From Takakia lepidozioides (lineage: Eukaryota > Plantae > Bryophyta), in contig CM060733.1 in NCBI GenBank assembly GCA_030704615.1, positions 59,458,001-59,522,000 of the forward strand: a stretch of DNA of 64,000 bases. Reading direction: 5' to 3'. How positions within the stretch are numbered: position 1 is the stretch's first letter; each line of letters begins with the position of its first letter. This document shows, in pieces, positions 901 through 28,284 of this stretch. Under the pieces are notes generated by a model. That model saw only the letters and a program-made list of their open reading frames with translations, did no database searches and was not told the DNA's origin. The position numbers were made by a program, and so were the translations under genes.

Positions 901-1696
901 TGCATGAATTCCCCCCCCACATTCACTCACTTTCTTTCACATTGTGCTTCCTGGAATTACCTTTACTGTCAGGAGTCCTTCCACCAACTCCTAAGTCAGT
1001 GTAACTACTATGCAGTAGATGTTGAAGTCATACACCTCACTGTGGAGACCTGCGGATGAGATATCGCGGTTTTGGATGAAATTTGGTCAGTGACGGATGA
1101 AAAATCGACCGACTGTGGATATTTTTGGAGCCTTTTGGGGGCTTGTTTGAGGACTATTTGGGGTCTATTGAAGCTAATATCTTGCAGGGTGGGTCTGCAC
1201 CAGCAACAATGGAAATATGTCAGCAACTATGGGTATTCAACGACAACACGGACGAAGACAAATGAAAGTTACAGGAAATACCTTTTGCCCTGGAAACTCC
1301 CCCTTCGACAGAGGCAATGTATTAACACATGTCCATATTTTGTTGATTTGGAACCCAGAGGACTTCATGTAGCTATGAAGAATCCGGCGGGATGCCATGT
1401 CGTCAGATTGAAATATCAGAAGCCCCCCTGAGTCAGAGAGGAACTTGTTGCAGAAAGAGAATGCCCACTGCCAATACAGAGGGTTTTGAGCATTCCACTG
1501 TGGAGTCACAGCAGGGGGAATGATATCAAGCACAGGCTGCCCATCCGGGATGTCAAGGATTACAAGGTCAGCGGCGTAAGGCTGCTGGACACCGTTCACC
1601 CAACATGGATTCTTCGTCACCTGCCAAAAGCAAATGCAAGCGAATGAAATTGGGTAGTTGGTATACATTTAGGATACTGGTAGTACAAAACACTAG

Positions 1697-1730
1697 TGGA
1701 TTAAGATGTCGTTGACGACATCTTAATCCA
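1697..1730. repeat. Isolated palindrome TGGATTAAGATGTCGT-TG-ACGACATCTTAATCCA (16-bp arms) in an intron
   Basis: Read directly; lies in predicted intron 1794-1621. Confidence 0.9.
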
Positions 1731-2565
1731 GCAAATCCAAAACCCCACAATGTCATGAAATGGGAATCAAAGTTGAAAGATGCATGGGCATTACCAGGGT
1801 GAGGAAAGAGCAGAGGTGGTCCCATGCAGGAGATTTGACCCCTGTGAATGTGGACTTCCTGGACTCCATCATACGCAGGAAGCTGACGTTTGCCATTTTC
1901 CGCTGGAACTGCGGACCCACTACTCTGGAGACACAAAGTTGGGCTTCGTAAGGTCGTTTCCCTGCCCTGTGGTTAGTCCTTTCATCAGCTGTCACGGAAA
2001 TCTGTTGGACCTTTGTACACACAATGCGATGATCTACCTGTGGGCGATCAAGAACTGCCCCACCAGTCCCTGCAGGCCCTAACCCAGAATCAACGGCAGC
2101 CGTAGCACCGGCAGACCCACCTGCCTCCGCAGTCTGTTTCCCATTGTTTTTCTTCTTCCCACCCGCAGGGGTGGATGTCTTTGTTGGCTCCTTCTTACTC
2201 AGCTGCGCAAGGAACCTAGCCTGCAACTCCTCATCTGTCCGGGGTGCCAAGGCATCTGCATTCTCATTCTGATTCCTCAAGACGTTCTCCTCCCACGGAA
2301 TGGACTGTTGAGGGCAGTCGAGGTACCACTCGCAGTCGCTGTAATGTGCCCGACCCCAGTCCTTCACAATTCCCGCACTGAACATAGTGGTGTCGTCGTC
2401 TGGGTTCGCCCATCCACGAATAAAGTCCGGATCATCACTGAGAGCCTTATCTGGAATAAGAACGAAGTGAAAGTACCTGCATCCACACCAATGTTCCTAC
2501 TCAGAGCATATATCCCCACAGACCACAAGAACTCACCTGTTCATTGCATATTTGCAGACTACACC

Positions 2566-3023
2566 TTAAGATGTCGTTGACGACATCTTAAAATCCAGGA
2601 ACTTGAAGAGAATTTGAAGAGATACAGAACAACAGAAAACAGACATGCTCAACTGAACTATTTCCGAGAGCCCAAAGAACAGCCATTTAAGATGCCGTCA
2701 ACGCCATCTTAAATCAACCCCTACGCACATGGTATTTTTTCGTTGCCTGACGAAAAATGACTTGTTGGACTACAAAAGAATGTCTGTTACGACATCTTAA
2801 ATTGCAGGAAGCACAACAAAACAATGAAGACCTGCAGATGAACAAGAAACAGATGTGTGAAACTGTACAGTTTTGAAGAGCCCAAAGGGCAATGCTTTAA
2901 GGTGTCGTCAACGCCACCTTAAATCGACCCAGTTCATACATCGAATTCTTTGTGTAGTACCGAAAAATTGCTATTTGCACTACAGACAATGCCTGTTTTA
3001 AGATGTCGTCAACGACATCTTAA
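2566..3023. repeat. Four full copies and one half copy of the TTAAGATGTCGTCAACGACATCTTAA palindrome in an intron
   Basis: Copies at ~2566, ~2687, ~2897, ~2998 and a half copy at ~2780, all inside predicted intron 3052-2477. Confidence 0.88.
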
Positions 3024-4811
3024 TGTAGTGCCATCAACATAAAAGGCAGTACCTGTACAGAACTCGTTTCATTGCCTGCTCCCCATTATACTGATGGTCA
3101 AAGTCCTGCGAGCGCAGTATTCCCCCTTCCTTCTCGAACTCACGGAAAAATGCATACTTCCACAGCTCTCTTCTCCATTTCCGAACGTATGACTGGAACT
3201 TGATGCTCGGAGTGGTCATTGTGATCTTGTAGTCCAGCAGTGATTTCTCAAAAGTATTTATAGCCCGCTTCTCCAGCTGCACAACCATCCGCCACATTTT
3301 GAGTTAATCAACATAAGAAACCATGTACTCATTGCTGGAACAGTCACAATGTTTTTATAGTCTCACCTGGCTCCAGAAGGTCGCTTTCTGCAACCAAGTG
3401 TCGAATGCGCGGTCGCTGACAGGTGTCACCACCCCAGTCTCAGGGTCCTTCATTGGTTTTGGGAATTTGTTTGTATCCCGGATGATCGGATCCGAGTTCC
3501 AGATTTCCAGCCACCTCACTTTCTGAGCAGGGTCAACCATGGAAATTGAAAGGCGGTGGAGCTTTTCCTGTGTCATCTCTAGCTTAGTGGGCTTGTTCCA
3601 GTGGATCCGAACCCCTTTCCCAATCCGGGGTCAGCGATTCGAATGTGTTTGTCAAACGCGCTCTTGAGGTTCTTCATGCACATATCCATGTCCGCCTTCA
3701 TTTTTGCCTCCACCCCATTTGCCGTTCTCTCATCCTCATCGGTAGTGGCGTAATACTCCAGCTTGGCTTGTTTTCCTGCTTCTGCTATTTCTTGTTGTGA
3801 CACACCCATGTAACCCTCGTGTCAACAAAACCAAAGCAAAAACATGACATATCCATAATTCAAGAAGAATGGCAGTCCGCACATAAACTCACCGCGTACA
3901 AGTAGTCGAGAAACACCTCCCTTGTCAGGTTGTACCAAGTCTCATTCTTCTTGATCGTTTGGCACTTTTTCAGTGTGTCCGGGGACAAGACACTCGCAAA
4001 CGTTTCCAACGGCATCACTCCTATGCTTTGCATACGAAACAAGGAATGGACTATGTTGGTGGTGACATGGGATGTCTCCGTCCCCCTGCAATGCGAACAG
4101 GTCAGTTGACAAAGTTTAAAGATTGACAGAACAATGAAATTGGAGACAAGAAGTGGGCAAGACTCTTACTTGTTGATATCGTGCATTGCAGTTAGAAGCT
4201 GCGTGAACTTCCCCTCCGGATCGAGGACCATTGACTCAACCCGATAGTGTCACTCTATGTTCTCCGCATACATCCTGCTGATGTACTCCATCCAGGCCAC
4301 CAAATGGTGGTTGCCATCCCAGACAAAGAACATTTAGTTCATGTACCGGATGTGTGCTGGGTTCTGTGAAAGCTCAATCTCAAACTCCGTATTCACTTCT
4401 TTCCAAAGCGGGTCCCAACTGTCCATTACATCGAGGTCAACCAATTTCTCAGATCCCTGGAGATCAGTCAATGACACGTAAAACACAGCCGAACTCTTCA
4501 AGTACCCATGGATAAAATCCCCTTGTAGCTTCTTGATGTCGTGGTGAAGGGCAAGCCGAACTGCTGTCATAGAAATCATCCGGCACAGAGGAATGAAAAG
4601 AGTGTCGTCTTTCACTACCATGGAGTTGATGACTTTCCTCGAGTTCACCTTGGTGGTGTACATAAGAGAGTGCACCTTGGCTTCATAGTTGGCGTCCACA
4701 ACAACGTCCTTGTCTTCAAGAACAACTGTTTCCTCTGCAGGCTGGCTTCCCCCGGCTTTCTTTCTCTTTTTCTGCAGAATGCAATGTGTTAGGACACACA
4801 AATCATGGCAC

Positions 4812-5766
4812 GATTAAGATGTCGTCAACAACATCTTAATTTGATGTTATTCCATGGTGATTTCCCAATGTTTGAGGGTCAATGCAGTTGTAGATTAAGG
4901 TGTCGTTGACGACATCTCAATCTGTTGTAGTTCTAGAGTGTTTCAGATTGCTTCAGTGTTTCAGAGTGATTTTCTCATGTTTTGGGTTCAATTCATTGGA
5001 GATGAAGATGTCGTCAATGACATCTTAATCTACTACAGTTATAGGGTGATTTTCGCATGTTTTGAACTGAATGCAGGAGCAGATTAAGATGTCGTCAACG
5101 CCCACCTTAATCTGATGTAGTTGTAGGGTGTTTTTTGGATGTTTTATGTTGAATTCATTGGCAGATTAAGATGTCGTCAACGACAGCTTAATCGGCGGTT
5201 TTTCAAGGGTGATTTCCCCATGTTTGAGGTTCAATGCAGTGGTAGATTAAGGTCTCGTTGACGACATCTTAATCTGCTATAGTTCTAGTGTGCTCCAGAT
5301 TGATTTTTTGATGTTTTCGGTTCACATCATTGGAGATTAAGATGTCGTCAATGACATCTTAATGTGCTACAGTTGTAGGGTGTTTTTCTCATATGTTGGA
5401 CTGAATGTAGAAGCAGATTAAGATGTCGTCAACGCCACCTTAATCTGCTGTAGTTGTAGGGTGTTTTTTGGATGTCTTAAGTTCAATTCATTGGCAGATT
5501 AAAATGTCGTTAACGACAGCTTAATCGGCTATTTTCCTAGAGTGATTTCCCCATGTTTGAGGTTGACTGCAGAGGCAGATTAAGATGTCGTCAATGACAT
5601 CAATCTGCTGTTTTTCAAGGTGATTTCCCCATTTTCGAAGTTGAATGCAGTGACAGATTAAGCTGTCGTCAATGACAGCTTAATCTGTTGTAGTTCTTGG
5701 GTGTTTTCTCCATGTTTTTGGTAGAACGTAGTAGCAGATTAAGGTGTTGTCAACGACACCTTAATC
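4812..5766. repeat. Tandem array of 12 units (~81-bp period) with conserved 30-bp palindromic core GATTAAGATGTCGT-CA-ACGACATCTTAATC
   Basis: Cores start at 4812, 4893, 5001, 5082, 5164, 5245, 5335, 5416, 5497, 5578, 5656, 5737. The ~51-bp linkers are homologous to each other but more diverged. A higher-order 4-unit repeat of ~334 bp is visible. Confidence 0.95.
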
Positions 5767-6198
5767 TTCCTTCACTTTAACCTTCCTAAGTAAACCTTTA
5801 CCTGCAAAGGTGACCTTTTAGGTAGCGTTATCGACACCTCAATCTAACTCCTTTGTGTTGCAAAGACCATGGATTCGAATGTACGAACTAACCTTCTCTG
5901 GCTTCGTTCCTCCGCTAGAAGACCCGCCCCCCACTGCACACCTTCTGCCTTGCACCTGGCTCTTCTCCTTCACGGATTTTGGAGGCACTTGTGTGTTTTT
6001 CTCCTGCTCCTCAGTGCCTGTGACCTGTCGTGGACACTGCATTATTTGCACCTCCTCCTCCTGAGCGACATGACCCTGTTCTGGCATGGTCTGCTCTTGA
6101 ACTGCAGGATCCACAGATGAGATCGGACGCTGACTCTCCCAAGCCTTCTTCCGCTTTCTCTGCCAAAAAACATAATGAAGGTAAGCATTGCAGGCCCA

Positions 6199-6432
6199 GA
6201 TTAAGGTGTCGTCAACGCCATCTTAATCCTATACATATTGCAGGCTGTTGCACTCATACAGCGACAGCATTGGGCTCGCTACAACTAAGAGCTTTGCCTC
6301 TCGGAGGTGGCAGATTAAGTTGTCGTCATCGATAGCTTACTCACTTTGCTCTGAACTTGTTCGAAACCCTTTCAAATGCAATGGTGGACATGATGCGATG
6401 CCGTTTAAGCAATCGTCAAAGTCATCTTCAAC
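6199..6432. repeat. Further degenerate copies of the same palindrome in an upstream intron
   Basis: GATTAAGGTGTCGTCAACGCCATCTTAATC at 6199; weaker copies at ~6313 and ~6405. Confidence 0.75.
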
Positions 6433-7297
6433 TCAAATGTATGTTTCTTACTGCTCTTCTTATCGCTTCGAGTCAGGGAACAAGGTCATGTAAAGCCAAT
6501 GTGCTGCTGAACTCACCTGGATCAAACTCTGTCCACCGCTGGAAGTGTCCTCCTCTCCCAGCCCGACGTTGCTTTCTGCTTGAGCCTTCTCCTTCAACGG
6601 GCGCAAAGACAGCTGCATGGAGGAGGGCCGCCCCCTTGTCGGCAGGCCCCTCTGCGGACTTTGTTGCGTTGCCTCCTCCTCCGCAGGAGTACCGCTCTCC
6701 CTTTCGACTTCCTCCTCCTGTATCGGTTGCAATAGAGGCAGCTCCAATAGATCCTCGAGCTACTTTTCCAGAATGGGCTCCTTCCCTGCCAAACTCTCCA
6801 TCCCTTCGCCCACAGAACCCTCCCCCTCACGATCGCTCCCTCCCTTTGACAAGTTCAAGCCCTCCTAGCTTTCTTCATCCTCTCTCTTGCTCTCAACCTC
6901 TGCCTAGCAGACGTGAAGTACAGAGACCGCCTTCTCGCTCTCTTCTTTCCGGAAATGCTCTCGTTCTTGGGATGCTCCAGTGTGGCGAGTCTGAAATGAT
7001 GAACGCCAGAATGTAACCTTCGAAGACATCCCTCGGGCAAATGACAAAAGTTGATGGCGGTTAGGTTTTCATCCCTCCCTCTCAAGGAAACTAATCATCC
7101 AAAAACGTAACGGCTCATAATTGGGGTTTTTGTTTTTTGGCGGGATGCTTGCGGGCTATCTCGCAGAGAACTCGACACCTGTTGCCCTTGCAAGACACTT
7201 AAATATAGGCATGTCACATATCCATGTTAGACATAAGGGGTTCGACCCACACCGCAGTCACTGAGGATGTGGCATCTGCAAAGTCGGCCGCAATTCT

Positions 7298-7930
7298 CAC
7301 TAGAAGCATTCGTGTCATTTACCACTGGGGTAACGACTCATTTTGAGTCGTAAAAGTCAAAAAACAGGGATCGACTGGAAGTTACAACAGACGTGGTAGT
7401 TGGGTTGGACATCCAATGATTGGAGTGGTAAAGGACGTAGACACGCGAACAACTGCTCAACGATTAATGCGATTAATGCTGAAGAACCACGTGGCGTAAC
7501 CAGGCGGGCCGCCCGTGTGTCTGATGTTTTGAGCTGACTTTGACTTTTCCCTCCGGATGAGTGGACTGACTCACCTGGGGCGCGGTGACACATGGACGCG
7601 GACGTGGATGCGGTCGTGGATGCCGATGTGGCGGCGCCTCGACGAGCGGTAATGCCGCCGCGTGGCCACGGGCTCAAGACGCCACATCGCAGTCGGCCAC
7701 ATAACTTGGAGTGTTGCATGTCACGTGGCAACAGCCACTGGCGAAGTCGACTGCACAACTGCCGGCAGACGAATCCACGGGGACCACGTGGAGAGTGTGT
7801 GGGTCGACGCGTGGCGTCGTCCCCACGCAATGGCAGTGAGGGGTACGACTGCTAGTGGAAAGACGCAGAGTGCTTGTGCCATCTCGGGACTGCTTTGGCC
7901 AACTCCGCTGCCACTATGCTAGTTGGTTGC
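7298..7930 (+). mobile_element. CACTA terminus (CACTAGAAGCATTCGTGTCATTTACCAC) with subterminal region
   Basis: Homology with the inverted copy at 24418-26945 stops exactly at CACTA (7298-7302) and TAGTG (26941-26945). Subterminal hairpin ACGACTC-N5-GAGTCGT at 7333-7351, then a CpG-rich, palindrome-rich stretch. Confidence 0.85.
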
Positions 7931-8411
7931 ACTACAGTAGGAAAGCACTGCAAATGAACACTTGTAGTGGTTTGTGTGAGTTGTCCAACTGACTTGCATT
8001 CTAAGCTGAAAATATGGTTCTGATGCATTCTATTGGTTTTAGTGGTTCACCCATATGCAGGGGGAATTGAGAAGCAATGATACTGGGCGACACTCAGAAC
8101 ACAGACCACGATGCATGCACAACATCGCGCTAATGAACCAAATAGACGAGGCAACAGGGAGACCAAAGACCATCACACATACACATAGAAGGTGGACGGA
8201 CACGACGACAAGTCAGGAAATGGAATATTGCATTGAAATTGGAGACCGTCACGGCACACCTGCATATGAGCAAGACTAAATGCCAACATACATGGTTGCC
8301 GGACATCACTTAAACTGTCATGGCCCAAATGTACAAAACTGGTAACGTGAGTATCATACACACTTCTATGAGTATCATTACACACCCAACAGGGACTACA
8401 AACATGAAATG

Positions 8412-11400
8412 TCACTTGATACCTTCACCCCTCCTCATACTCTTCTCTGGCCATAGAGTCACCGTGCCTTTCACGTGCGCTAGTGTGGTCTGGGGGGGGG
8501 CATCGTCCACATTTGGGCAAGGCAGTGTAACACTTGGAAGCATGATCTCGTGGACTTTCACCTTGTACCACCCGGATGGAATGTCCTTGCAGTGGAACTT
8601 GTCAACCCCGGCTATTCCCACCACCTCCGCCTTGGCGGCGGCTGTCTTTGACCGCTTGTCATGGGGGTTCAGGAGAAGCACAGGATCTGATATCTGCAGA
8701 CACCAACATCAGGGTCCACTCAGCAACAAACATAGCAATGACAGGGTGAAAGTCAAGCGCAGCTGGGCATGGAAATGATCTTGGTTGCCACAATACTGAA
8801 TCAGCAGCAAATTCATGGTATACCAACCTACCTTGAAGCGAAGCTCGTCGCTGAGGGTGGCAACTGAGGAAAGCTGCCCACGTGTCTTCAACTGCAGCAG
8901 CAAAAAGAGGTTTAGTCAGACGGATAAGAATAACATGAACTCTGGTGGTTGCAATGGTATAAACACACCTCCACGGAGCAAGCTAACTTACACCCTGCTC
9001 AGACTGTGCACACTACAACCTCCTGGCAAAAATAACCCTACTAAAAACCAGCCAGGCAAAGCAAGGAGCCATGAATGCATGCCTGGGGAACCACGTCCTG
9101 CTGCGATGATGGTGCCGGGGACAGCCCACTCCTCTTGCTCACCTGCAATGAATACACATTGCAACGCTTCAGGAAGTGTATCCATAAAGGAAACCAACCA
9201 AGTAAGTTTGCGGAGAGGGGCTGGGAACAACCATACCTTGGAGCCTGCCTCCTCATGCCGGGGGGGAATCCGGAATGCTGCCGCCGTAGCACTATGGTCC
9301 TTGGCGCAGGACCCACCTTCTTCACAGACGACCCCACTGCCACTCCCTGTACATGTGGTCCCTGCAAAACATATAGTGCCAGCCTTGCGTGAGAGGGCAT
9401 CCGGGGGGAACAAAACAAACATATCTTATCCATCGATGTCATGTTGCAAACAGTAAGGTTAGTTTCACCTGCATGGGCGCAGAAGTACTTCCCCCAACGA
9501 CCCCATCCTCTCCCACATTCAAGCTGCCAGTCGGGGTCAGCTTCCGCGTGCTTGTGAAGACACGCACATCCTTGGAGCAAAACAAATCTTGGCAGTAGGG
9601 CCAGACTGTTTCTAAAAGGTACTCTGAATCGGGCCCCTCACTGACATTGCTAGTGACATCAAACGACAATGGATGGACCATGTTCAAAGGGGAGTTCCCC
9701 CTCCCCTTGTGTGGTGAATCATCCACTAGGAGGGTGTTGGATTCGTTAAATCCAGAAAATTCCGACCACACCCTCGACAGTCTCTTCTGTAAGTTCTGTA
9801 CGGCAGGCCCTTTTGTGGGGTGTGGCTCTGTCAAGGGGTCACACTCCTCTTGTGACCACACAAAGAGGGGAGAACCCTTGACCCCCTGCATCACCACTTT
9901 GAAGATGTCTGCAACATTCCCCTTGGAAGCACAGGACCATATCCCAACGTAGAAATGCTGGAAGAGAAGGTTTAAAAACTCGCAGACCTGGGGCCTTGGG
10001 AAAACATACTTGTTGGTGGTCAACACCCATGGCCAATGACGCCTCGGGTTGGGCTGAAAGTTAGGAATAGAGTGGCACAGGATCCCGTTCAGGTCTAGAA
10101 CAATTAGTTTCGACTTTTCTATGAAAGGAGCTTTTGAAGGGGTGTCACGGGGTCTCACCTCAGTGGGTTGGGAGACAACAGTCACCCTGGAGGGCAAAGT
10201 TTCGGTCCCCCTGCAGCCTGGACCAGGCAAACTACCACCCTCTCCCCCTACAGCTTCCCCTTTTCCTTGATAGAATGAGCAATGACCCCCCCATCGTCCA
10301 TGTCATCCCCACCAACTCGCTGGACCTCTCCCTCTTCAACGAGTGGACCCTACCCCCCACTGTGAATATCATCAACAACAGGCTGGACCTCTGTCACATC
10401 CCTACCCACTACAATTACTTCCTCCTTCTCAGGTACAATGGTCGCAGCAGGGGGGTCTTCCATAATGCCACCCGTCACACCCCCTTTTTGCCTCATCATG
10501 AGTTCCACTATCTTCTTCAGTTGTGCTTCCATTCCCCTCTCCCGCTCCGCAGAGAGAGCCGCAAGCCTCTCCAGGCCCCGATGCGGGCTGCCATTGAGTT
10601 CCCCGCTCCCTACGCATACAAACACCCACCCGTACTGTTAAAAACCAGAAGAAGAGGCCGAATGTGCAGGATTTCAGGCATTCGGAGATGGCTGGGTTTG
10701 GCATAACACCCCTCGTGTACCATGCGTGGGGGCCCCACATACCCACCAAATCTTAGTACAACAACAGATTCATGAATGGAAACCGGACTTCAAAACATAC
10801 CTGGCTCAAAACAGACTCTGATGGGGTGCCAGTCGCATAGTTCTTTTGCTCCGCCCCGAGCTCGGACAGTGACGGGCTCCGCGCTTTGCGTCTTTTCTGT
10901 ATTTGCCCATCCACACACTGTCAGTACAAAATGCCAGGAGCATATGGACAAAGCACTGCCCTGCATATCACATAACAACTAATTCTGCACAAGCAATAAA
11001 ACCCACTCGTGGGTGTCTCTTCCATCAGAACATGCCACAACGTAGGAGCAATGAGAAGGGGGTGAGGAGATTACCAAACGGGCTGCTTGGCCTGCAACTC
11101 CTGCCCGGCCCCAACGCGAGGGGTTCGTGACACAAGCACGCGCTTGCTTCATCCCTTCAGCCTTTGCAAGTCCACGAGGGGACTCCCAGTAGGCAACAAG
11201 CTTATCCCAATAGGCGGGTTCAGTGTTCATTGGCCTCACACCAGTCTTTGCCCATTTATCTTTCAGTTTTGCTCTTTCTCCTTTCATTATCTTCCCACAT
11301 TGCTTCACTATAAAATCACGATTGGCAGGGATAGGTCTGTACTCGTACATTCCATTTATGCCCTCTATTACTGTTGACATGGCACTCTGGGACTGCTGGT

Positions 11401-11944
11401 CAATGTCTTGTACGCTTGAGTCAAGGTAACGCAATGCCAGGCCACGCAAATCACGCTGCCAGTGTTCCTTACCTTCGCAGCCAACATTGATGACTCCATT
11501 TCCATGCACCTCCACCTTGTGGCGCTTTAGCCCTGCAGCCACCCTTCCCTCTCCATCTCCTTCCCATTGTTTCATGGCATGGCGTCGTTCCTTCCTCAGC
11601 TCTGATGTCCGTTTCCTGCCCCCATGCTCTGGAGCAGCGCCGTCATACGTTGTGGGGGGTGACTGATGTGTGCCGGAGGGGGGAGGGCCGTATGGAGATG
11701 TGGGAGGCCCCCATTGTGACGTGCCAGCATCAGGAAGCCAGCGCCACGACCCTGAAGCAGGGGGGGCTCCCCATGGTGCACTCTGTTGTGGAGACCATGC
11801 GGCAGGGGGTGGGTGCCAAGGTTGGTGTTGGTTGGCATTGTGTGGTGGCTGTGAGTGCTTTGCTGCAGCTTCACTCCCCTTCCGCTGCCAAAAACATCCC
11901 ACAACAAGGTGCATCAGCTGTAGTCCTACTGAACACAACGTCAC
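8412..11944 (-). pseudogene. CACTA TnpA-like gene: Ptta/En/Spm-type domain + FCP1/NIF (HAD) phosphatase-like domain + C-terminal Tnp1/En/Spm-like domain
   Basis: 10979..11944: WDKLVAYWES..KAEGMKQARACVTNPSRWGRAG (Ptta-like). 9439..10230: KLIVLDLNGIL, FPRPQVCEFL, VGIWSCA, LFVWSQEEC, NTLLVDDSPHK (NIF). 8412..8694: GVDKFHCKDIPSGWYKVKV..LPCPNVDD..VKGTVTLW (Tnp1-like). Short linker exons at ~9360-9237, ~9142-9083, ~8892-8833. Stop at 10350, frameshifts near 10257 and 9262. Confidence 0.78.
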
Positions 11945-12344
11945 CAGAGCACAAACGATCCCACAACCACAACTATGGATTGGCTGACCTCAAACCCACT
12001 CCCCTGCAGCGCAAGTGCCAAAAACTGAAAAGGAGAGGGACAGAATGTCCTCATAACATGTAAGGCCATTCATTGGTGAAGAAACATAATGTGGGCGGGT
12101 TCACATCAGTACCATCATACACACTTACCAGGAAACAGAACGGGTTTTGCACATAGGGAGTGGACATCTATTCACACAATCAGCAAATGGCTGTATGGCG
12201 GAGCCCAGCATCGGAGCCCCAAAAGGCCTAAAGACTCTCAATGTTTGTAAACACAGGTGCAGACACAATTCAATTGATAGCTTGGATATCCGGTGGTCTG
12301 TATGGTGATAGCACCCCGGGCAGTGAGTCAGACAATGACCCTAT

Positions 12345-13484
12345 GACGTTGGTAGTAAGACTTACCTTCGTATAAAGCATTGATCCGGGTTTTCCAGATA
12401 TCCTCTAGAAATCCCTTCACACAAGCATCAATCTGTTGTGTGTGATTTGCCCAAAAACTAGGCCTCAGGAGGGCCTGGGCTTTTGGCTCAGCCTCGAGTC
12501 TTTCAAAGTTGGTAAACAGGGGTACATGCACAATTCCCTTGATAGAATTGAAGAGAGCGTCTCTTTGGTGAGAGAACCCCGGACAGCGTATCAGAAAATG
12601 AATACTGTCTTCAGATTGCCCACACAACGGACAATTGCACTCTCCCTTTCCGATCTGCTTCTGTTTGCTGTTCAAAGGTAGGCTTCCTGCCCTGAGTTTA
12701 AATTTCAGTCTAGTGCCGAGAGTGGGTGGACCCTTCAGGTCATCCAAGATGTCCACCCCCATGTCACTGACTGGAAACAAGTTCAGGGAAGTTCTCTGCC
12801 TAACTTCATTTTCATCAGACAATCTCATGGCAACAGACATGGCTTCAGACACTACAGCCTGTAAGGCAGATTTATCCAGCAGGGTCAAGACTTGCGGATC
12901 CAGGTCCAGGTCCTTGAGAATCTTTTCTACTCTCTTCTGCCAGGACTTAGTCTGTTTGACAGGGCGGTCCTGTTTCCAAGATTTAGAGTCGATCAACTTA
13001 GGATATCTGGTGTTGGGCATATGTTGCAGCTGACCCCACCATCTGACCTTGAATTCATCTCGTCGGGAGCTTAAGGATGGGATGCCAAACTCACCCCCGA
13101 ACAGCCACATTGGCTGTTTTCTCCATGCTGACATACACTCCTTAAGCACCCCCACTTGAATGGATTCTAGAGACTTAGCCTGGTTGGAGTTATCAACCCA
13201 TATAGCAGATCCGTACTCCAAGGCAGGTCTAATAACGCGACAAAGCATGGTTTTCTTAACCTCAGAGATGACCCCTCTGCAGTGGAAAAATTTAGTGAGC
13301 CCCAGAGCTTTGCCCTTGCCAGTTTGAACAACTTTCCGTATATGTGCATCCCAATTACAATTGGAGGAAAACTCAACGCCTAGGTAAGTGTAGGAAGGGA
13401 GGACCGAGATCTCTTGGCTACCCCACTGCCACTTAAGATCACTTCCTCCCTCTCCTCTGTCGTTGATTGCTACCACTGCACATT
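12345..13484 (-). mobile_element. Non-LTR retrotransposon (LINE) ORF2 fragment, C-terminal to the RT core, with CxxC-H-C zinc knuckle
   Basis: ORF 12328..13476: SYTYLGV, IRPALEYGSAIW, KLRAGSLPL, CPLCGQSEDSIHFLIRC. Homology with the 16138 copy ends at ~12345. Confidence 0.88.
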
Positions 13485-13509
13485 TCTGCCTAACTTCATT
13501 TTCTGCCCA

Positions 13510-14625
13510 ATCACATCTCCTCTACGCTGATGATGTTGCCCTTTTGGCACAATCCCCGGTCTTTCTGCAACGCCATCTCTAAATTTTGGAACAGTTCTGC
13601 AAAGACTATGGGATGCAAGTCAATCTTAGCAAGACCAAGATCATGGTCTTCAATGGCCAGGCTGATCGTAGATTCATCTTCAACCAGCAGGAAATTGAGA
13701 TTGTCAAATCATACCGGTACCTAGGTCTGGTTATCCACTCCCCCAAGTTTCACTTTGCAGCCACTGCCTTGGACAGATTGACTAAAGGTAAGGCGGCCTC
13801 CGTCCGCCTTCACGCCAAATGCAAGCAAATACATGTGCGGCATCCCCCGACCAAAAAGTGTCTGTTTGACACCGTCGTCAGCCCTGCTACCATCTATGGT
13901 TGTGAGTTCTGGGCACCTGGTGTCCCTGTCTCCTGGTGGGAAAAGATTTTGGAACCATTACAGTCATCTTTTCTCCAAGCAATGCTTGGCGCCAGGAGCA
14001 CAACTCCCTCTCAGATCCTAGGTGCAGAGTTCGCATGTGTACCATTGCAATCCGAGGCACAGTTCAGGCTTACAATCTGTGAGGAATAGATTGCAGGCCC
14101 TTCCACCCAAAGGCTAGTGGCAAGGGCCCTCACAACATCTATGAGGCTCAAAGCTGCAGGTTTCGGGAACTCCTGGTATGCTCGAGTGGACAGTTTATTT
14201 CAACGTAACGGACTTTCTACTACTTTCCTATTACCAATGAACCCAGATGAGGTGGACATCACATCCACACATGACCGCAACAGACTCATTCGGAGAGAGC
14301 TTATGGAATTACATGTGAAGAGAACTTGGATGCTACCCAATCTCACAACAAAGCTCCACTTCTATCGAGAGACATTCTTGGTGCTCCGCGATGATAGAAT
14401 CTTGAGACCAAATTACCTTTCAGCACCCTTAGCTCCTTCCCTCCTGAGGGCATTGGGGCAGTTCAGGGTGGGTTCCCACAACCTACGGATAGAGACTGGC
14501 AGATGGGAAAACCTGCAACGGGAGGACCGCCTATGTCCAGCTTGCATAGGGCGCAGCAAGGAAATTGAAACTGAAGAACACTTCTTCTTCTACTGCCCTC
14601 TATACTACGAGATCCGATTGAACAA
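13510..14625 (+). mobile_element. Second LINE ORF2 fragment (different family), from the YADD motif to the C-terminal zinc knuckle, with stops and a frameshift
   Basis: HLLYADDVALL at ~13514-13546, VNLSKTKIMVF, SYRYLGL, YGCEFW, FRVGSHNLRIETGRW, CPAC..ETEEHFFFYCPLY. Confidence 0.9.
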
Positions 14626-15130
14626 CTTTATGGATATGTGCATCCCAGTTTCAGTTTCAGGAGAACTCAACGCCCATAGAACATGAACAGAAGTAGGGGT
14701 AGAACTCACCTCATGCGCAGCGGGTTTGTGCCGTTTGCGCACCTTTTGGAGAGACTCTGCAGATGGAGGTGCAATTTCCGCCGAACTGTCCTCCACCTCA
14801 TCGTCGTCGCCCATGCTATAGTCGCTTGTGTCAGAATCCAAACTGGAAGACCGCCCACTGCTCTGCCTTCCCTCTCGCACCGACGCCATCTGTACCAGAT
14901 TCAGTCGAGCCAGGCGGGGGCTCCTTCGCACCGCGGGGCTGGAATGTGCACAAGTGGGAGGAGGTGATGCTGCCTCGGCGGTCGACCGCTTCTTACTAGG
15001 CGTGGACATAGACCATGACAAAGATGAAGACGAGCGAGGACATAGACCATGAGCAAGACAAAGACGAGCGAGGAAGACCAAGACATGCAAAGGAGGAAAG
15101 AAGGACAAGGAGGGGAGTGTGATCACACAC
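14626..15130 (-). other. Ser/acidic-rich ORF fragment, possibly the 5' end of a retroelement ORF1/gag
   Basis: ORF 14605..15126 (RRSPRLARL, SDYSMGDDDEVED) abuts the LINE fragment; no diagnostic domain seen. Confidence 0.3.
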
Positions 15131-15930
15131 CCCCCGAGCTCAAGGTGAAGATCCGGCCGTTGTTGATTTCAAATATGAACACGTGTCGTGCATCCGACAC
15201 TATGGCCTTTTCGACTTTGAGACGTTAAACCCTAAACCACTTACAGTCCTCCAGACAACTAGATGTAGTGATTCACACAACTGACATTTGGTTGGCCTGT
15301 TATGCAGGCTTGTTCTGTAATCTCCAGTGGACATCATACAGTTTCTTTGTTTCTTTCATTTTTTGTAATGCTTGAACAGTTCATATCCTCAATGTCTTAT
15401 TGCAGTCCAGGCTTCAAGCAAATGAGAGGTAGTCCTGGTAGGATGGTCAATGTCCTTAAAAGCGGCCTTGTCTATTATCCATCCAAAAACTAAAGGTCTC
15501 ATCTATCATGGTTAATATATGCTTGGATAAGAAAATGACTCGGTATGTCTTCTTTTTCACAATCACGGGGAGGGTTACCTCGACTCACTAGCTGATCTCT
15601 TAGCACAATTGACACCAAGCCCTTGACACGGTTTTCATGTGCATGTCAGCATGCTCCAAAACAGCCAATGTGGCTGTTCGGGGCGAGTTTGGCATTCGTT
15701 CCTTAAGCTCCCGACGACATAAATTCAAGGTCAGATGGTGGGGCCAGTTGCAACAATGAACCGATATTAGCCTTGAGTAGTTCTCTGACTCTTTGGGTTA
15801 TTTGTTTGTTGTTCTACTCCTTGTGGCCCTTTAGGAATCCCACAGACGTGATACACATATCTCTTTCCTCACTTTCGGTCCTTCACTGACTACCAGAAAT
15901 GTCACACCGTATGTCTGCATCTGAAACTTT

Positions 15931-16512
15931 TCACCTTTGAGACAACATTCTGCAGCACGCTCTGCTAGCTTCACATTGCCATGTATTCTGCAGGCACCAA
16001 GTAAAGCCCCACACTAAAGCATCTGGTTTAATTGGCATTCTGTTGATGAAATTCTCCGCCTCATCCAAGCGCCCTGCACGGCCAAGAAGGTCAACCATGC
16101 AGCCAAAATGTTTTCCTGTTGGAATGATTCTATTATCACACACAACAGATTGATGCTTGTGTGAAGGGTTTTCTAGAGGATATCTGGAAAACCCGGATTA
16201 ATTCCTTATATGATGGTAAGTCTTACTACCACCGTCAGCCCCTGACGGAGGTAGGTTCTGTTCCTTTTGTTCCCGCTCAAACTGGGCGCAGGGTCAATGG
16301 CCACAAGGCTACGGCATACAACGTCTTATGAGTACAATCTATAATCTCTACTCATAGAATGGAAATAGTGTTGTCCTTCATCTACTAGGCCCATATGGCT
16401 GCATGCAGACAGAACTGCAATGAGTGTAACATCATTTGGCTTCACCCCTTGCTGTTTCAAAACTTGGTTGAAAAGTTGCAGAGCATCTTTGCCATGCCCT
16501 TGCTGAGAATAT
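15931..16512 (-). pseudogene. PLS/E-class PPR pseudogene fragment (RNA-editing-factor type), interrupted by a short LINE insertion
   Basis: YSQQGHGKDALQLF..GVKPNDVTLIAVLSACSHMGLVDEG at ~16512-16375; [34 protein letters not shown], then [16 protein letters not shown] after a frameshift, at ~16125-15945. Confidence 0.9.
16138..16335 (+). mobile_element. 5'-truncated LINE 3' end (~200 bp), same family as 12345-13484
   Basis: 16138-16237 is the near reverse complement of 12345-12443. Flanked by a probable diverged TSD: ATTCTATTATC (16127-16137) and AATCTATAATC (16336-16346). Confidence 0.8.
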
Positions 16513-17091
16513 CCGAAGACCTGCTTGCCCTCTTCTACAGCTGGGCACAGGGAGTGTCGTTGAGGCTGAAAAGGGGAAATTTGACCAGGTCATATCCGTT
16601 TGTGTTACTTCGAAGGTGTGGGCCAGCCTGCCAGAAGGTCAAAACAGGTGCATGCTGACATATGAAAGTCTGGCGTCGTGGAGATTGTTGGCTGTGAGGT
16701 GGGGATGGGGTTATCATCTTTCCTGGTAAATGAAGATATGATTGACATATCTCCTCTCCCATAAACTGTCACATTTCCTATAGGAAGTTCTTGTGACGCC
16801 CTTGACATGCTGTTGATGTGAATGAAAGCAGGCTGCAGTAGCAACAATGGAGAATTCAGGGTGTTTGGATTGGGGCAGAGCATACCATGGAAGAGAACAA
16901 GGGGCCCAATAGTTCGTGCAGTTGGGGGAGTTGATGTATGTACTTCCCCACACGGCCTTTGCCTCTCTTCACCATCTGTACCGAAGGTGCATAGATGGAA
17001 CAAATCTCCAGTCTTTTGGTGTGCTCTTGTAATTCTGATATGCCCATAGACCCACTTCTCTCTCCTGTCTGTCTTGAGTTCCCCAACAAAA

Positions 17092-20000
17092 ATGAGTTCC
17101 CCTCGCCCATGCGGAGGACTTCCAATTAATCACCCCTGTAGACAGAACAACCGGGATGACAGGTTGTGGGAAAGAGAAGTGGCACGTGCCCGAGCCCTTG
17201 GGCTTTCAAGGATGCCATGCCCATGTGAACGTTGTTTGGGCACTACAAGTAGATCTGAGGACGGTGTGCGCACACATCTCCTTCACCACAAAAGACATGA
17301 AGCATTTCGGGTGTGGATTGGAGATGGACCTGCAGACGAAGACGATGAGGAGTGGGCACAATTGGACAATGCACACCCCCGAGGGAGCCATACAGACAGG
17401 CCAGACGAGGACTATGTCATGGGCGCAGGACAGGAACCAGGCATGGACGGAGGGGTGGAGATTACTCGAATGTTGCAGGAAGCATTCCACATCATGGACG
17501 ATGCTGAAGAGGGGGACGGCGCTGCGACAACTGGGGATGGTGATGACGCAGGAAATGAAGGCATTCACGTGGGGGAAGGCGTGGAAGGAGGTGGAGATGG
17601 AAATGAGAATTCTGCACACATGACACTAGAAGAAGCATGTGTGCCACTGTACGAGGGATGCAAATCCACAAAGCTTGCTGCCAGCATGCTGTTGATGAAC
17701 CTGTGCACAACCCACGGTGTGTCAGACCATTTTGTGGACGAGTTGTTCTCTTTGCTTCGGCTGAACTTGCTTCCACAACCAAATGAAATGCCAAAAAGCT
17801 GTCACATGGCCAACAAAATGATTGGGAAGCTCGGCCTCAACTACGTGAAAATACATGCATGTCCAAAAGGACATGTACTTTTCAGAAGAGAGTACAAGGA
17901 CGCTATGGAGTGCCCCAAATGCGGTGCAGCCCGATACCATGATGTGGGCAGGTTACAACAGCCAGCCAAGGTGTTGAGGCACTTTCCCCTTATCCCCCGT
18001 CTATTACGAATGTACAAATGCAAGACCATTAGTGAGCTCATGACTTGGCATTCCAGGAATGCCTCAAACGATGGTTTGGTAAGGCATGTCCCAGATTCCC
18101 TTGCATGGAAGCATATAGATGCAACTTGGCCCGATTTCGCCGAGGACCCACGCAATGTGCGATTGGCTGTATCTACGGATGGAGTAAACCCATACGGATC
18201 AAAGAGTTGCACATGGTCCACATGGCCCGTGCAGTTGGTGGCATACAACCTGCCACCATGGTTGACAACAAAGAAATTCTTTGTCATGTTGTCTCTCTTG
18301 ATTCCAGGCAAGGAGTCCGTGACAAATGCAAACATAGATGTGTATTTGCAACCATTGATTGAAGAGCTACAGGAACTATGGATTGGAGTTGAAGCTTACG
18401 ACATTTTGAAACCAGTAGGGCAACGGAGTTTCACCCTCCGTGCCATACTCATGTGGTCAATCCACGATTTCCCCGCATATGGCCTTGTTGCGGGTTGCAA
18501 GACGAAGGGCTACAAAGGGTGCCCCATTTGTGGGCCCTATGTGGATTCACGGCACTCAAAGCCATTAGGGAAGACAATATACATGGGGCATCGACGTTAC
18601 CTTGCAAGAAACCACCCCTACCGACGAGCAGGCCGACACTTCAATGGATGTGTTGAAAAGAGAATGGCACCAAATGCTGTGACACCGGAGGAGACATTGC
18701 AATTTGCAAAGGAGAAAGAGGCGTTCATGGAGATTGGAGGGAGAGAAGGAAGTAGTGCGGATCCAGCCATGTCGCACGGGGTGAAGCGCCGGACAATCCT
18801 TTGGGATTTGCCATACTGGAAGGTGCATGAATCCCCCCCCCCCCATTCACTCACTTTCTTTCACATTGTGCTTCCTGGAATTACCTTTACTGTCAGGAGT
18901 CCTTCCACCAACTCCTAAGTCAGTGTAACTACTATGCAGTAGATGTTGAAGTCGTACACCTCACTGTGTAGAGGATCGTGCAGTTGTTGAAAGCAGAATG
19001 TAGTAACATGGACAACTTCTGCCACATATTCTACTATTTTTGCCCATAGAACTTGGTCTCATGGGAGGACATTTGGCATTTCAGAACCTCTTGCAGCGGT
19101 ACCTCCTGGACCCCATGCATTGTGAGAAGAACTTCTGCGAGAACATTCTGAAGACTATCTTTGGGGAGAAGGATACGATAAACGTACGAAAGGACATGGA
19201 GATTGAAGGGATACGGTCACATCTGTGGCTAAGGCCTGATCCAAATAGACCAGGCAAAGTGCTCATGCCAGCAGCATCATACGTCCTGACCAAATCAGAG
19301 CAAGAGGAATTTTTGAAGACATTGGGAGCCATGAAAGTGCCAACCGGATTCTCGGGTGCTTTCCAAAAGCATGCCATAAACAAGAAATGGTCGGGGATGA
19401 AGTCACATGATCTACACGTGATGATGCAGCAGATTTTGCCAGTGTGCATTCGGGGTACGATGGCGTCGGGTCCTCGAACAGCCATAATGCGTGTAAGTCG
19501 AGTGTTTAGGAAGATTTGTGCGAAGGTGTGGGATCCGAGGGACATTACATCGCTGCATGAGGATGTGGCTGTGACCCTATGTTTGCTGGAGAAAGAATTC
19601 CCTCCATCATTCTTTGACGTCATGACGCACTTGCTAGTGCATCTTGTAGAGGAGCTGCATGTGTGTGGGCCCGTAGCCAGCCGTTGGATGTACCCCATGG
19701 AGAGGTACATGAAGGATCTGAAGGGGTATGTACGCAACATGGCACGGCCAGAGGGGAGTATGGCGGAGGGCTACATCCGCGACGAAGCCCTGGGCTTCAT
19801 GACAGAGTATATGTCTTCATTTGATGCAATACAACGACGGGTGTGGGACGAGAACGAGGAAGAAGGAGTTGTAGGCGAGGTCCTAGAAGGTGGTGGAACA
19901 AAGCGTGCCATGAGCCCGCGCCTTCGGGATGTGGCACATGATTATGTGCTGAACAACACAACAACCATGACACCATGGAGACAGTGGGTGTAAACTTTAC

Positions 20001-21166
20001 ATCCCTCCTGTGCTATTCTTAATGGTCTTTGTATGCATGAATTACATATATATTGTCACAAGTCATTCCGGCCACTATGGGAGTGGGATCGTGTACTAAC
20101 AGGGTGCTTCAGACGACAACAGAGGGTGTTTCGTAGTTGGTGTTGTTGCTTGCAAGTGATCATGAAGTAGGCTGCATCACTACAATGTGCTTGAAAGGAC
20201 ACACTCTACATGTGGCATGCATGTACAGTACGGTGTTGGTCAGGGGGACTGAGTTGCAGCTTCTATTTGGTTTCTGCCAGAAAATACGCAGCGGAGAAGG
20301 TCCGCCTGAAAACGGAACGGAGAGCATTTGCAAAAGCATGGCGGAGGGGCGGTCGTAGGCGCAGATCCCCGGTGGAGTACCCGACAACAATGGAGGAGCT
20401 GCAGCCCTTTACAGTGTGGGTCAGATCTGCAATTGCAGTGTACGCATCAGAGAACGAGGACCCAGATGAGGGCATGGTGAGTCTGTCATTCCCCCCAGGG
20501 CTGATTGCCACTTCGTACCGGTCAATGAAAGCATATGGCAATCACTATAGAGTGGACGATGCCAACACCAGCCTCCTGGTGACTTATGACAGCGGAGTGG
20601 CATCATTTTTTGAACAAGAGAGTAGGAGCTGTGCACGAGATCGGAATCCAATTTCATGCCATGTGCAATATGTAGGAGTGATCAAAGAGATCCTTAAACT
20701 AGACTATGGTCTTGTGAAGCCAATTCTATTCCGTTGTTCTTGGGTAAAAGCCAATATGGTAGGAGAGAATGCCACCATGAAACGGGATGAGTACGGGTTC
20801 CTCCTTGCTGATTTCAGAAAAATGCTACCACAAGATGAAGAGCCATTCATCTTCCCATCGCAAGTTGAGCAAGTTTTCTTTTCAGATGACATCCATGCGC
20901 CGGGATGGAAGGTGGTTCTTCACAAGGACCCCCGGGCCAAACGAGTCGTTGCCGACGTCCATGATCTGGACCTAGGGGAGAATGCCGACCACGAGGGTCT
21001 GAGGGAACCACGAAATCTACCAGATACGGCCGAACCAGTCTCTTTGGAAGGAGCAGTTACCTTTAATGAGGAAGACATTCCAGGGTTGGTAATTACCGCC
21101 AGGCAAATTGCAGATGTGGGTAGTGAAGGGGAAGATTATTTGGATACGGATAGTGAGCCCAGCTGA
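17092..21166 (+). CDS. CACTA (En/Spm) TnpD-type transposase, apparently intact, 3 exons, ~1171 aa (Transposase_21 + DUF4218 + DUF4216 arrangement)
   Basis: Exons 17092-18822, 19085-19983, 20281-21166 join in frame (3516 nt) with GT..AG borders. Motifs CPCERC, HACPKG..CPKC, STDGVNPY, IHDFPAY, LDPMHCEKN, MKSHD, FPPSFFDVMTHLLVHL, WMYPMER, EPFIFPSQVEQVFF. Confidence 0.93.
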
Positions 21167-21995
21167 ATCTCAGTGTCCATTAAGCCAGCAGCTCATAGAC
21201 GAGAGCTATGCTAAGGACTCTTACTGTCCTTAGAACCCATTTTGTACAGTCCTGCTTATAAGCAAGGGCGAGACAGTTAATAGTATCGATAATGTATGGG
21301 TATGTGGTCACTGACTGTCTTGTGAACAAACCTTTTTTTGTTCTGCCCATATTGTTTCTGACATGTGAGGAGAGGATCGTCTTCATGTACGGGAAGTAGA
21401 CGTGAATGTGTGCATGCATTTTCTGGCCCATCTGCATGCTTTCCAGGAACAAAGACCAGTGGAATGGGGGGTGTCTCCAAAGGAGCAGGACCGAACGACA
21501 CCTTTTTGTGCTTCCCTTGCTTTCCTTCTCACCGTTGTTCCATTCTCCCACCTGCCCAACAGCAGCACTCTCGAAGCAATAGCATGACATATGTTCGCAC
21601 ATGGTCTTCTTCACCAGTGAATGAGCTTTTATGCTACATGTACTGCCCCGTCCACATTAACGTTGATCCCTGCAAGCACTTGGCAAGACACCCCAGAGCC
21701 GCAAATCCAGCAACCACCACAAACACATCTAACTGATTGTAGTGACACGGGAATAGCTCACTTGTAGAGGAATTGAACCTCCAGCCAAATGAATGGCTCT
21801 GCCCCTTGTAGCACAAGTGCGATGCAAAAACAAGGTGAGTACAAAATGAAGAAGCACTTACGAGGTCCCCATCCCTGGGATGGGCTCCCACTTCTGCTCT
21901 GGAACTGTGCAGGCCTGAGTAGCACCAAATTGCATGAATCCTAAGCCTGAATGTCAAATGCAGGTTTATGTCGCGATGTAGCACGCCATCATCTT
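21167..21995. mobile_element. CACTA internal segment downstream of the transposase, shared with 31399-32222; may hold a degenerate minus-strand ORF
   Basis: Colinear homology between the two copies. The minus frame DINLHLTFRLRIHA..HPRDGDL / LDVFVVVAGFAALG stays open in both. Homology ends at ~21995. Confidence 0.65.
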
Positions 21996-23144
21996 ACCTG
22001 TAGTTTCCAGTTTCACTGGTGTCACATTTGCCTTCAAGTCAACATCAAAATTAAGTCCACCTATGCGCAAATCGCAGAATCTCTCATGACACCATCTGCG
22101 TACCGAAAAACTGGTTTGGCATGATATAATTGTAGTTCACAACCTTAATGAACGCTTTCAGCCTTTACCTCTCCGTGCGCTCCATCGTGCCTCCATCCAG
22201 CACATTCTGTAAATGTTGAATGACCAAGAACCCGATGTCACACCGTTCTGAGAAGCCACTACGCGCGCTCACAGTATACGAAGGCCTTGCCGTGTCAGGA
22301 TTTGCATTCCCACGTCCCGCCATGTCCGACGCAGCACTTGCATCCTTGCCAGACAGGCCAGGTGGAGGCAACATGTATTAAAATATCTATTCCCCCAAGG
22401 CCACATTTTGTTTACCTCTTTTTGTGAAAGCCACGTCAGCAAATGTGCTGCCGAGTCATGGGTGCAATGAATGCGCAGTGGTTCATGGAGTCGTTGAGTC
22501 GACTACATATTCACTTTAATGAATAAATATATTTATTCCATTAATCGAATTAGGAATGCAAATTTGTAGTCGCATGTGCAGTAATTACAACCACTTGCAA
22601 TTTTGGCTTTTTCAAATTTTGTCTGTTTCGACTCTCCAGTAGTCCCGTTTACTACCAAGTGGTTCCCGGAGTGGTCGCGGACATGCAGTCGATTCGAAAA
22701 AGACACGAATGCTTCTAGTGTCTTGCCTGTCAGAATCATGTGTCCGGCGGTCTGTGATCTGACATTCATGGGATAAAATTCACCAGTATCTGTCAGAGTC
22801 AAAGCCGGCTACTAAACAACATGCAAAGAAATAATTTGCCTCAACACCTTCACTCGGTGGATCCACTGAGACATTCTCAGGAAGTGGTTCCACGAATTTG
22901 GCCTTCCTGGTGTACTCTTGTCACATGCTCTCCACTGCCCACACTCCCGTGCTCGTTCCTGCAATGTCTCTCAACTCCGATGTCGCTGTTTTCCACTCCA
23001 ACGCGCAAGCGGAGTACCTGAGTGCAGTAGCCGACGTGAATGGGCTCGCCGTAGTTCAAGAAGACTTGCTTTGCGTGACCTTGCCTGTTCGTTCCATGAT
23101 ATATCTCCCGACGAGAAGGAATAAAGGAAAATCATGCTAATCCG

Positions 23145-26945: not shown

Positions 26946-27084
26946 CTAGTTATTTCCTAGCTAGTTTTACACTAGCTACCTTAAACTAAATAGTTTCATA
27001 CTAACTAGTAAATTAACTAGTGAACTAGTTAATTTAACTAACATCAATATCCACTTGACAGCTGTTGTGCGCATACATATCGTT

Positions 27085-27795: not shown

Positions 27796-28284
27796 GGGGG
27801 ATGCTATTGTGTGAGATCCCGCGAGCAGAAAATTGCATGAGCAGAAATCTGCTCACGCTTGAGGACCTACCTACCTATAACCGCGGACGTCCAGTCGACT
27901 TAGAAGACTTATTACTACGCAGAGTGGCCAGTATCAGAAGGTCGGATATGGATGCTGCTTGGATGAATGAGGGATGAATGTCGGATGAATGTTTGTGTAA
28001 CGAATGAGAGGTGGATGAATGACATAAATGAAAGATTAGATAATTGTTTGTAGTGGTAGCTCCCAAAAGCTCGGAGATGCATGAAACCATACTTGACTTG
28101 CTTGAAAATCAATTATGCTGGGTGCAGTGTATATTGCAAACTTTGAGTCCAACTTTGTTGATTGAGAAGGACCACATGTCATTTTCCCAGTTATACAACG
28201 TTGATAGAGAGGATCACATCCAATCATGAAGAAGGCAAACATGTGAACTCTTGGTTTTTAAACAAACCCTTCAAAAGAATCGAT

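Follow-up and report, generated by a model that had tools for sequence, protein, structure and literature searches.

Palindromes in the predicted introns of a ParB-methylase-like gene from a moss: candidate docking sites for the protein of a Mutator-like transposon

A 64,000-nucleotide stretch of the genome of the moss Takakia lepidozioides (GenBank assembly GCA_030704615.1, contig CM060733.1, positions 59,458,001 to 59,522,000; hereafter the window, numbered from its first letter) contains a broken gene that likely is an accessory gene of a Mutator-like transposon, and within this gene we find 22 copies of a palindrome of 26-30 bp, spread over positions 1699-6432. The gene encodes, in this order, a low-complexity N-terminus, a predicted ParB/Srx-fold domain, a middle region and the first part of a beta-class amino-methyltransferase, and is damaged by in-frame stops and a frameshift near 3610. 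The features of the window are collected in Table 1.

Table 1. Features of the window and the basis on which each was recognised (SAM, S-adenosylmethionine; MULE, Mutator-like element)
Feature	Position	Strand	Location	Basis
Broken accessory gene, 8 predicted exons	1282..6801	-		homology, splice consensus, frame
ParB/Srx-fold exon; DGNH motif, family arginine replaced by His, two stops	4170..4771	-		fold, alignment
Methyltransferase motif IV exon; DIPD, no aromatic residue	1282..1620	-		homolog alignment
Detached 3' exons, same kind of gene, SAM-binding motif I region	28740..29215	-		protein homology
Single palindrome	1699..1728		predicted intron 1794-1621	repeat finder, consensus search, weight matrix
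Five palindromes (2564, 2685, 2773 half-decayed, 2895, 2996)	2564..3025		predicted intron 3052-2477	repeat finder, matrix
Tandem array, ~81-bp unit, 13 palindromes	4812..5844		predicted intron 5892-4772	repeat finder, matrix
Three palindromes (6199, 6313, 6403)	6199..6432		predicted first intron 6516-6160	repeat finder, matrix
Main exon, MULE-like transposase	23148..24152	-		Atlas features 0.94 to MULE clusters; no Pfam match
CACTA element, matching termini, TCT target-site duplication, palindrome-free	7298..22720		between transposase and accessory gene

The core of the palindrome reads TTAAG-N-TG-K-CGT, followed by a two-base centre and the mirror image; among the window copies the centre is TG, CA or TA (AA once) and never CG. 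A repeat finder returned 22 copies of a 26-nt unit between 1701 and 6430 (family D4), and a consensus search allowing up to three mismatches returned 16 copies, all at 1701-6226, with none in 100 shuffled sequences. With a two-strand weight matrix, 21 sites scored 18-51 bits and the half-decayed site at 2773 scored 4 bits, whereas the top score in the rest of the 64 kb was 0.3 bits and the maximum over 30 shuffles was 10.9. The first-pass annotation, made from the sequence alone, had described one palindrome recurring in four introns of a single gene, outside its exons and unseen elsewhere in the window, and this description holds: the copies fall into four predicted introns of the minus-strand gene (3, 13, 5 and 1, in the order of transcription), and in the matrix scan of the window none of the 22 lies in a predicted exon or in the three short introns of the gene. 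Predicted introns make up about 44% of the length of the gene. Three of the copies (2773, 5815 and 6403) had not been named earlier. The further claim that the palindrome, rather than a long duplication, is the shared unit stands for comparisons between introns, where the flanks differ, but not inside introns, where copies were multiplied by local duplication, as in the ~81-bp array and in a 106-nt repeat whose copies are 210 bp apart (D7).

Within the array, the match to the column consensus is 0.91 for palindromes and 0.74 for spacers; when the edge units are left aside the values are 0.91 and 0.78 (p = 1.3e-4, with columns that are not independent). The two outer CG steps are retained in 32 of 40 half-sites of the window, and far less often in the related classes described below; in the introns with palindromes masked, the observed-to-expected CpG ratio is 0.35. 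A search of metagenome contigs with the exact palindrome gave no matches. Helical phasing of the sites is not claimed: the spacings in the window lie near 0.6 turn, unlike those of the related loci, which concentrate around whole turns of 10.5 bp (p = 1.5e-5 for 82 non-independent spacings and p = 0.03 for the 50 unique values among them).

The four palindrome-bearing introns all have GT..AG ends and contain stops in the coding frame. Three of the intron boundaries are backed by homology to a 1147-amino-acid protein of Ceratodon purpureus (P0003, M758_1G295400) that is matched by the ParB exon and carries the methylase domain PF01555: the match resumes across 3052-2477 at residues 663/664, matches flank 1794-1621, and the array has the ParB exon on its downstream side. 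The two 5' exons are based on splice consensus and frame continuity alone. Besides aligning along the accessory gene, the Ceratodon protein aligns to the detached 3' piece near 29044-28799, and the detached exons probably derive from the same copy as the broken gene. The accessory gene is multi-copy, since 2690 contigs from a single DNA run match it. A wider search with exon 4771-4170 returned 856 homologous clusters at E 0.001 or better; among the relatives of the gene none came from viral contigs, and prokaryotic genomes gave one candidate and no loci.

The assignment of the ParB exon comes mainly from its predicted fold. A single-sequence model had a predicted local distance difference test score (pLDDT) of only 37, and the model was redone using an alignment of 63 sequences, with which pLDDT rose to 89. 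In a structural search with this model, the top eight matches all had the ParB/Srx fold, including KorB (Z = 7.1, root-mean-square deviation 2.8, 92 aligned residues) and PadC (Z = 7.0), and in Foldseek the list was led by Noc, PadC and ParB, with a best E of 0.011. Pfam did not recognise the exon, and when PDB sequences were searched with the ParB profile the sole match was to a ribosomal protein, which we judged to be due to chance. The family shares a DGNHR box, in which G, N, H and R are conserved in 58, 63, 59 and 52 of the 63 sequences, respectively, and in which the window copy has His for Arg. This box corresponds to the GxxR box of ParB (PMC12704722; here and below, published work is cited from partial text). 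The type of nucleotide used by ParB-fold proteins cannot be predicted from sequence (PMC12704722).

The methylase part is supported by PF01555 matches in 9 of 38 aligned members and by a PDB search in which the family profile matched beta-class adenine methylases (E = 1.7e-6). The order of the motifs also fits the beta class, with motif IV preceding the SAM-binding motif I, which in the window belongs to the detached 3' piece. The catalytic motif of amino-methyltransferases, [DNSH]PP[YFW], ends in an aromatic residue. Such a residue is missing from motif IV of the window copy (DIPD) and is present in only three of the nine homologs examined, so that methylation may be absent or altered.

As a separate observation, residues 215-700 of the Ceratodon protein, which are homologous to window positions 4771-2250, are placed by language-model features nearest to clusters of fungal DUF3723 proteins (0.96-0.97, with as many as 194 of 256 features). 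DUF3723 is described, in the portions of text available, as a conserved cargo gene of Starship elements, and the resemblance suggests that it may be a ParB-like self-binding module. Pfam gave no DUF3723 match in the accessory family, and a literature search found no paper joining DUF3723 with ParB.

Repeated palindromes also occur near the gene in many of the related loci. The related loci, namely the best 80 of 186 confirmed in metagenome contigs, form 40 clusters at 90% identity, to which the window was added. A de novo palindrome search in 37 representatives (L001, L038 and L045 were omitted as short) revealed repeated palindromes of 20-22 bp, well above shuffled sequences, in many of the loci. 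L004, L013, L066 and L071 were set aside by eye as AT-rich satellites or loose matches, and 19 loci were sorted by eye into palindrome classes. When all loci were cross-scanned, 19 of the 40 had at least four sites of one class, 17 of them being in the training set and two outside it. As in the window, the sites gather just 5' of the ParB exon, where they are intronic or upstream, and in the interval separating the middle region from the motif IV exon. None of the 125 sites falls in a block of protein homology; such blocks cover 8-31% of these regions (a lower bound on coding DNA). Only three matches were found in 152,897 bp farther from the gene. The window motif itself scores in none of the 40 loci, but its inner CGT-YR-ACG (Y, pyrimidine; R, purine) is common to class B, and three spaced YR steps are common to classes A, A2, B and D. 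Other repeats also occur at some loci. At L013 (+2084..+3421 from the ParB match) and L066, a 25-bp AT-rich satellite without a clear palindrome class lies downstream of the ParB exon, and at L017, L031, L042 and L053 there is another palindrome of 21-23 bp, starting GAGTCAAA or AGTCAAA, in two or three copies per locus at scattered distances.

The motifs are maintained over considerable divergence. Among 36 pairs of loci with the A/A2 motif, 32 have ParB domains that are 41-60% identical; with the motifs masked, 30 of these diverged pairs show no alignable upstream DNA and the other two a single match of 27-30 bp. Selection for a binding site spread along the gene, one of the two explanations offered by the first-pass annotation, is supported by this retention of the motif where the flanks of relatives are unalignable, as well as by the greater conservation of palindromes than of spacers in the array. 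Furthermore, the motif classes follow the protein tree, with eight changes required on the ParB tree for all classes compared to a mean of 12.6 for shuffled labels. Classes B and C each form a single starred branch. When only L075 was used to train a class D matrix, it found 11 sites in four of seven clade-mates and none near the gene in the 32 other loci; a class B matrix found two sites in the fifth member of the class B clade and none elsewhere. This pattern shows co-inheritance with the element lineage; it is not proof of co-evolution.

The accessory gene likely belongs to a Mutator-like plant transposon, the transposase class being assigned from Atlas features. The intervening CACTA element is a later, unrelated insertion because it has its own termini and TCT duplication, and its removal places the MULE-like transposase open reading frame (24152-23148) directly upstream of the accessory gene. 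We rejected the possibility that the accessory gene is part of the CACTA element, whose ends, flanked by a target duplication of their own, are at 7298 and 22720. Five of the 40 locus clusters (L004, L022, L059, L062/L060 and L073) have a relative of the MULE-like transposase, with about 34-54% identity, at a distance of 1.6-10 kb on the upstream side of the ParB exon. In these clusters it is on the opposite strand, whereas in the window the two genes are in tandem; upstream DNA of at least 5.5 kb was available in only 19 of the 40 representative loci. The long open reading frames of 17 loci, inspected by eye, included pieces of retroelements and of the host but no obvious candidate for another DNA transposase.

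The window has several other features. A 28-kb block (1049-29215) interrupts a CACTA transposase, the halves of which lie at 1-1048 and 29216-32224, and one edge of this block coincides with the end of the accessory gene's 5' part, the other with the beginning of the 3' exons, which gives the impression of an inserted piece in circularly permuted order. A second copy of the CACTA element of Table 1 is represented by inverted, rearranged fragments at 24418-27795, and the second gene region of the Table 1 element itself contains a NIF/FCP1-like phosphatase domain (PF03031, E = 1.6e-13) at 9439-10302 on the minus strand. Short GGATGAA repeats are enriched at 1052-1190, about 27930-28030 and 34150-34280; the first of these patches occurs with other flanks in contigs of other runs and is thus probably a separate repeat or an element end. 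Unrelated, palindrome-free tandem repeats are located at 54961-55209 and 34790-35400 (an 82-bp unit and a compound 21/57/163-bp array).

We interpret the palindromes as parS-like docking sites for the ParB-fold, methylase-like protein of the gene that contains them, which would protect the element from silencing, and put the probability of this reading at roughly 0.55. It extends the earlier suggestion: a transposon accessory gene names the likely binder, and the target is likely to be the element and not the gene alone. The protein of an intact copy would bind the two-fold sites as a dimer, load with nucleotide through the ParB fold and spread over the element. By occupancy, the bound protein would keep the element active against host cytosine methylation, and the methylase-like part might in addition write an amino-methyl mark, N6-methyladenine or N4-methylcytosine. 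Introns would be the sole gene-internal place where sites could build up, and they would multiply there through tandem and local duplications, which is also how VANC motifs multiply in VANDAL elements. The window copy, being broken, could serve solely as a target for intact copies.

Several observations weigh against this interpretation. The structural matches of the ParB exon remain below Z = 8 and Foldseek yielded none at E 0.001 or better; moreover, the same fold is found in ATP enzymes that are not DNA clamps, such as Srx and SerK (PMC12704722), and Pfam and PDB-sequence searches of the middle region gave no match to a helix-turn-helix (HTH) or dimerisation domain. The atypical motif IV counts against a methylation step. 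The palindrome-bearing introns are predictions from sequence; two sequencing runs that may derive from RNA matched scattered short pieces only, a pattern that is uninformative about expression. Among the related loci, 21 of 40 have 0-2 sites of the tested classes, several of them despite long flanks, and on the ParB tree classes A and A2 need two and three changes; the tree pattern as a whole speaks to co-inheritance only, because kin share labels and a linked transposase would yield the same pattern. Finally, contig depth at palindrome 1699 is 35-250 times that of the flanks, above the expectation for 22 sites per copy, so that sites may exist in other subfamilies or elsewhere, although summed contig depth is not copy number. 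By eye, several of the loose contig ends at this motif match other sites of the element and some do not, and the list of contig differences is unfit to measure motif conservation, short contigs piling up on the motif.

The same sites and the same binder could also have the reverse outcome, with the protein repressing or limiting its own gene and element in the manner of KorB, a sliding clamp that turned into a long-range repressor (PMC11790492). KorB ranks first among the structural matches of the ParB exon, and because the sites are inside a transcribed gene, bound protein could block elongation. However, the top structural rows are tied within one Z unit, so that the rank of KorB means little, and tandem multiplication of sites in many lineages is the pattern described for the activating VANC targets. 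We accordingly consider repression unlikely.

A different binder, either the Mutator-like transposase or a host factor, would leave the ParB-methylase gene as a mere host of the palindromes. Transposases can be sequence-specific activators (10.64898/2026.08.24.746577), which speaks for this possibility, and, the transposase and the accessory gene being linked, the tree pattern cannot separate the two. Nevertheless, the sites gather at the ParB gene, not at the transposase or farther out, and in red algae inverted-repeat arrays lie beside the ParB accessory genes of another transposon superfamily, which makes a transposase or host binder improbable.

Given that each copy is self-complementary, the palindromes might instead act in RNA, forming hairpins or pairing at long range and thereby tuning splicing or supplying small-RNA production. 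The computed fold of intron 3052-2477 pairs copy 2996 with copy 2564 over 29 bases, and two copies end 39-40 nt before an acceptor, so that the long-range pairing proposed in the first-pass annotation is physically possible; no sign of selection on RNA structure was seen. Imperfect pairs on the sense strand comprise 111 G-U and 98 A-C in the related loci (p = 0.41) and 6 and 9, respectively, in the window, where changes in the arms are one-sided in 30 cases and compensatory in four, all at one degenerate position (permutation p = 0.055); Rfam contained no family near its cut-off. A site in duplex DNA, with both halves being read, is favoured over an RNA hairpin because the variation is strand-symmetric, whereas selection on an RNA stem would favour G-U, and we accord the RNA explanation only a small probability.

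Neutral turnover, that is, the functionless spread of a chance hairpin by satellite amplification and by copying between introns, would account for the 13 of 22 copies that sit in one tandem array and for the local duplication of others. It leaves unexplained why palindrome columns are more conserved than spacers and why the motif persists across lineages with unalignable flanks, and its probability appears to be very low. Highly improbable is the second explanation of the first-pass annotation, a tiny mobile hairpin inserting at TTAA, since, notwithstanding the TTAA at both ends, formally a direct repeat, the different flanks in different introns and the high depth at the motif, the other ~58 kb of the window contain no copy, the palindromes of relatives lack TTAA ends or such a repeat, the 18 bp between the TTAAs are far below the known size of miniature inverted-repeat transposable elements, and the contigs over 1645-1785, few of which span the 1699 site, list no empty site, deletion or joint there (weak evidence).

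Combining the docking-site interpretation with the resemblance to DUF3723 leads to a broader and more tentative model, doubtful as a whole, under which Mutator-like transposons of land plants would run a nucleotide-gated ParB clamp that loads at family-specific palindromes in its own introns, slides, and protects the element or amino-methylates it against host 5-methylcytosine. Site and protein would diverge together as a self-recognition code, and the DUF3723 cargo genes of fungal Starships may be built on the same module. The several distinct palindrome classes, paired with distinct protein lineages, represent ready protein-site pairs for cross-binding; binding within such pairs, if it occurs, would place a ParB clamp at work in a eukaryote, provide a second, independent plant anti-silencing system and supply orthogonal tools with which chromatin could be controlled locally and site-specifically.

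The idea of self-binding has already been published for algal transposons; here, it is extended to a single fused gene with family-specific sites in its own introns. A literature search, with most subscription papers and supplements outside its scope, found no report from a land plant of a ParB-methylase accessory gene with its own sites. For the ParB accessory proteins of algae, self-binding is a proposal only (bioRxiv 10.1101/2025.02.11.637652; PMC12477816). The accessory protein of Sola1-1_Ec32 from Ectocarpus consists of a ParB-like domain and an N4-C/N6-A methyltransferase in 1104 amino acids and has been proposed to bind and modify its own transposon (PMC12477816). Compared by description, it resembles the moss family as a ParB-methylase fusion on a DNA transposon of similar protein length (1104 against 1147 amino acids in Ceratodon), but it comes from a brown alga, is accompanied by a Sola transposase, and its binding sites are undescribed in the portion of the text seen. 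Red-algal Plavaka elements, with the genes PAG3 and PAG2, have a ParB accessory gene and tandem inverted-repeat arrays proposed as binding sites, and the accessory gene occurs also on Mutator elements (bioRxiv 10.1101/2025.02.11.637652). There, ParB is fused to a 2-oxoglutarate-dependent oxygenase, the methylase is a separate gene and the arrays are adjacent to the gene, whereas the moss gene encodes one ParB-methylase protein and carries the sites in introns.

Among prokaryotic systems, ParB-fold proteins load at repeated cognate sites and then slide (PMC10770331; PMC6237886), and VirB is a ParB-type anti-silencing clamp (PMC10770331). The moss gene resembles ParB/parS, KorB and VirB in its predicted ParB-type fold, in the repeated, putatively cognate sites carried by a mobile element and in possible long-range control, and most members of its family, though not the window copy, keep the arginine of the GxxR box; it differs from ParB/parS in being eukaryotic, intron-bearing and methylase-fused, in having no recognised HTH or dimerisation domain and in its longer site. 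Phage fusions of ParB with an N6/N4-methyltransferase have the same order of the two domains and are likewise carried on mobile DNA (PMC12704722), but proteins of the plant family contain an additional long middle region, and our searches returned no close viral or prokaryotic relative. ParB-HTH-fused methylases were reported in chlorophytes and chytrids (Iyer 2016, PMC4738411), and these are not the plant family described here.

A parallel in working is found in the VANDAL elements of Arabidopsis. The motifs bound by their VANC proteins are in introns and other non-coding DNA, are tandem-amplified and change with the protein lineage, and both binding and demethylation have been demonstrated experimentally, VANC directing the loss of host methylation (PMC5735166); VANC is named as the sole transposon case shown to bind and modify its own sequence (bioRxiv 10.1101/2025.02.11.637652). 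As is likely in the moss, a Mutator-type element bears an accessory gene with family-specific, tandem-amplified intronic motifs. The VANC motifs differ from ours in being 9 bp long, non-palindromic and in one orientation, and their function is experimental, whereas here function is deduced from sequence. The VANC-type domain, which we take to be DUF1985, is not among the Pfam matches of the window and family proteins, which have ParB and methylase parts instead. The accessory gene is probably VANC/VANDAL-like in its working and is not a member of that family.

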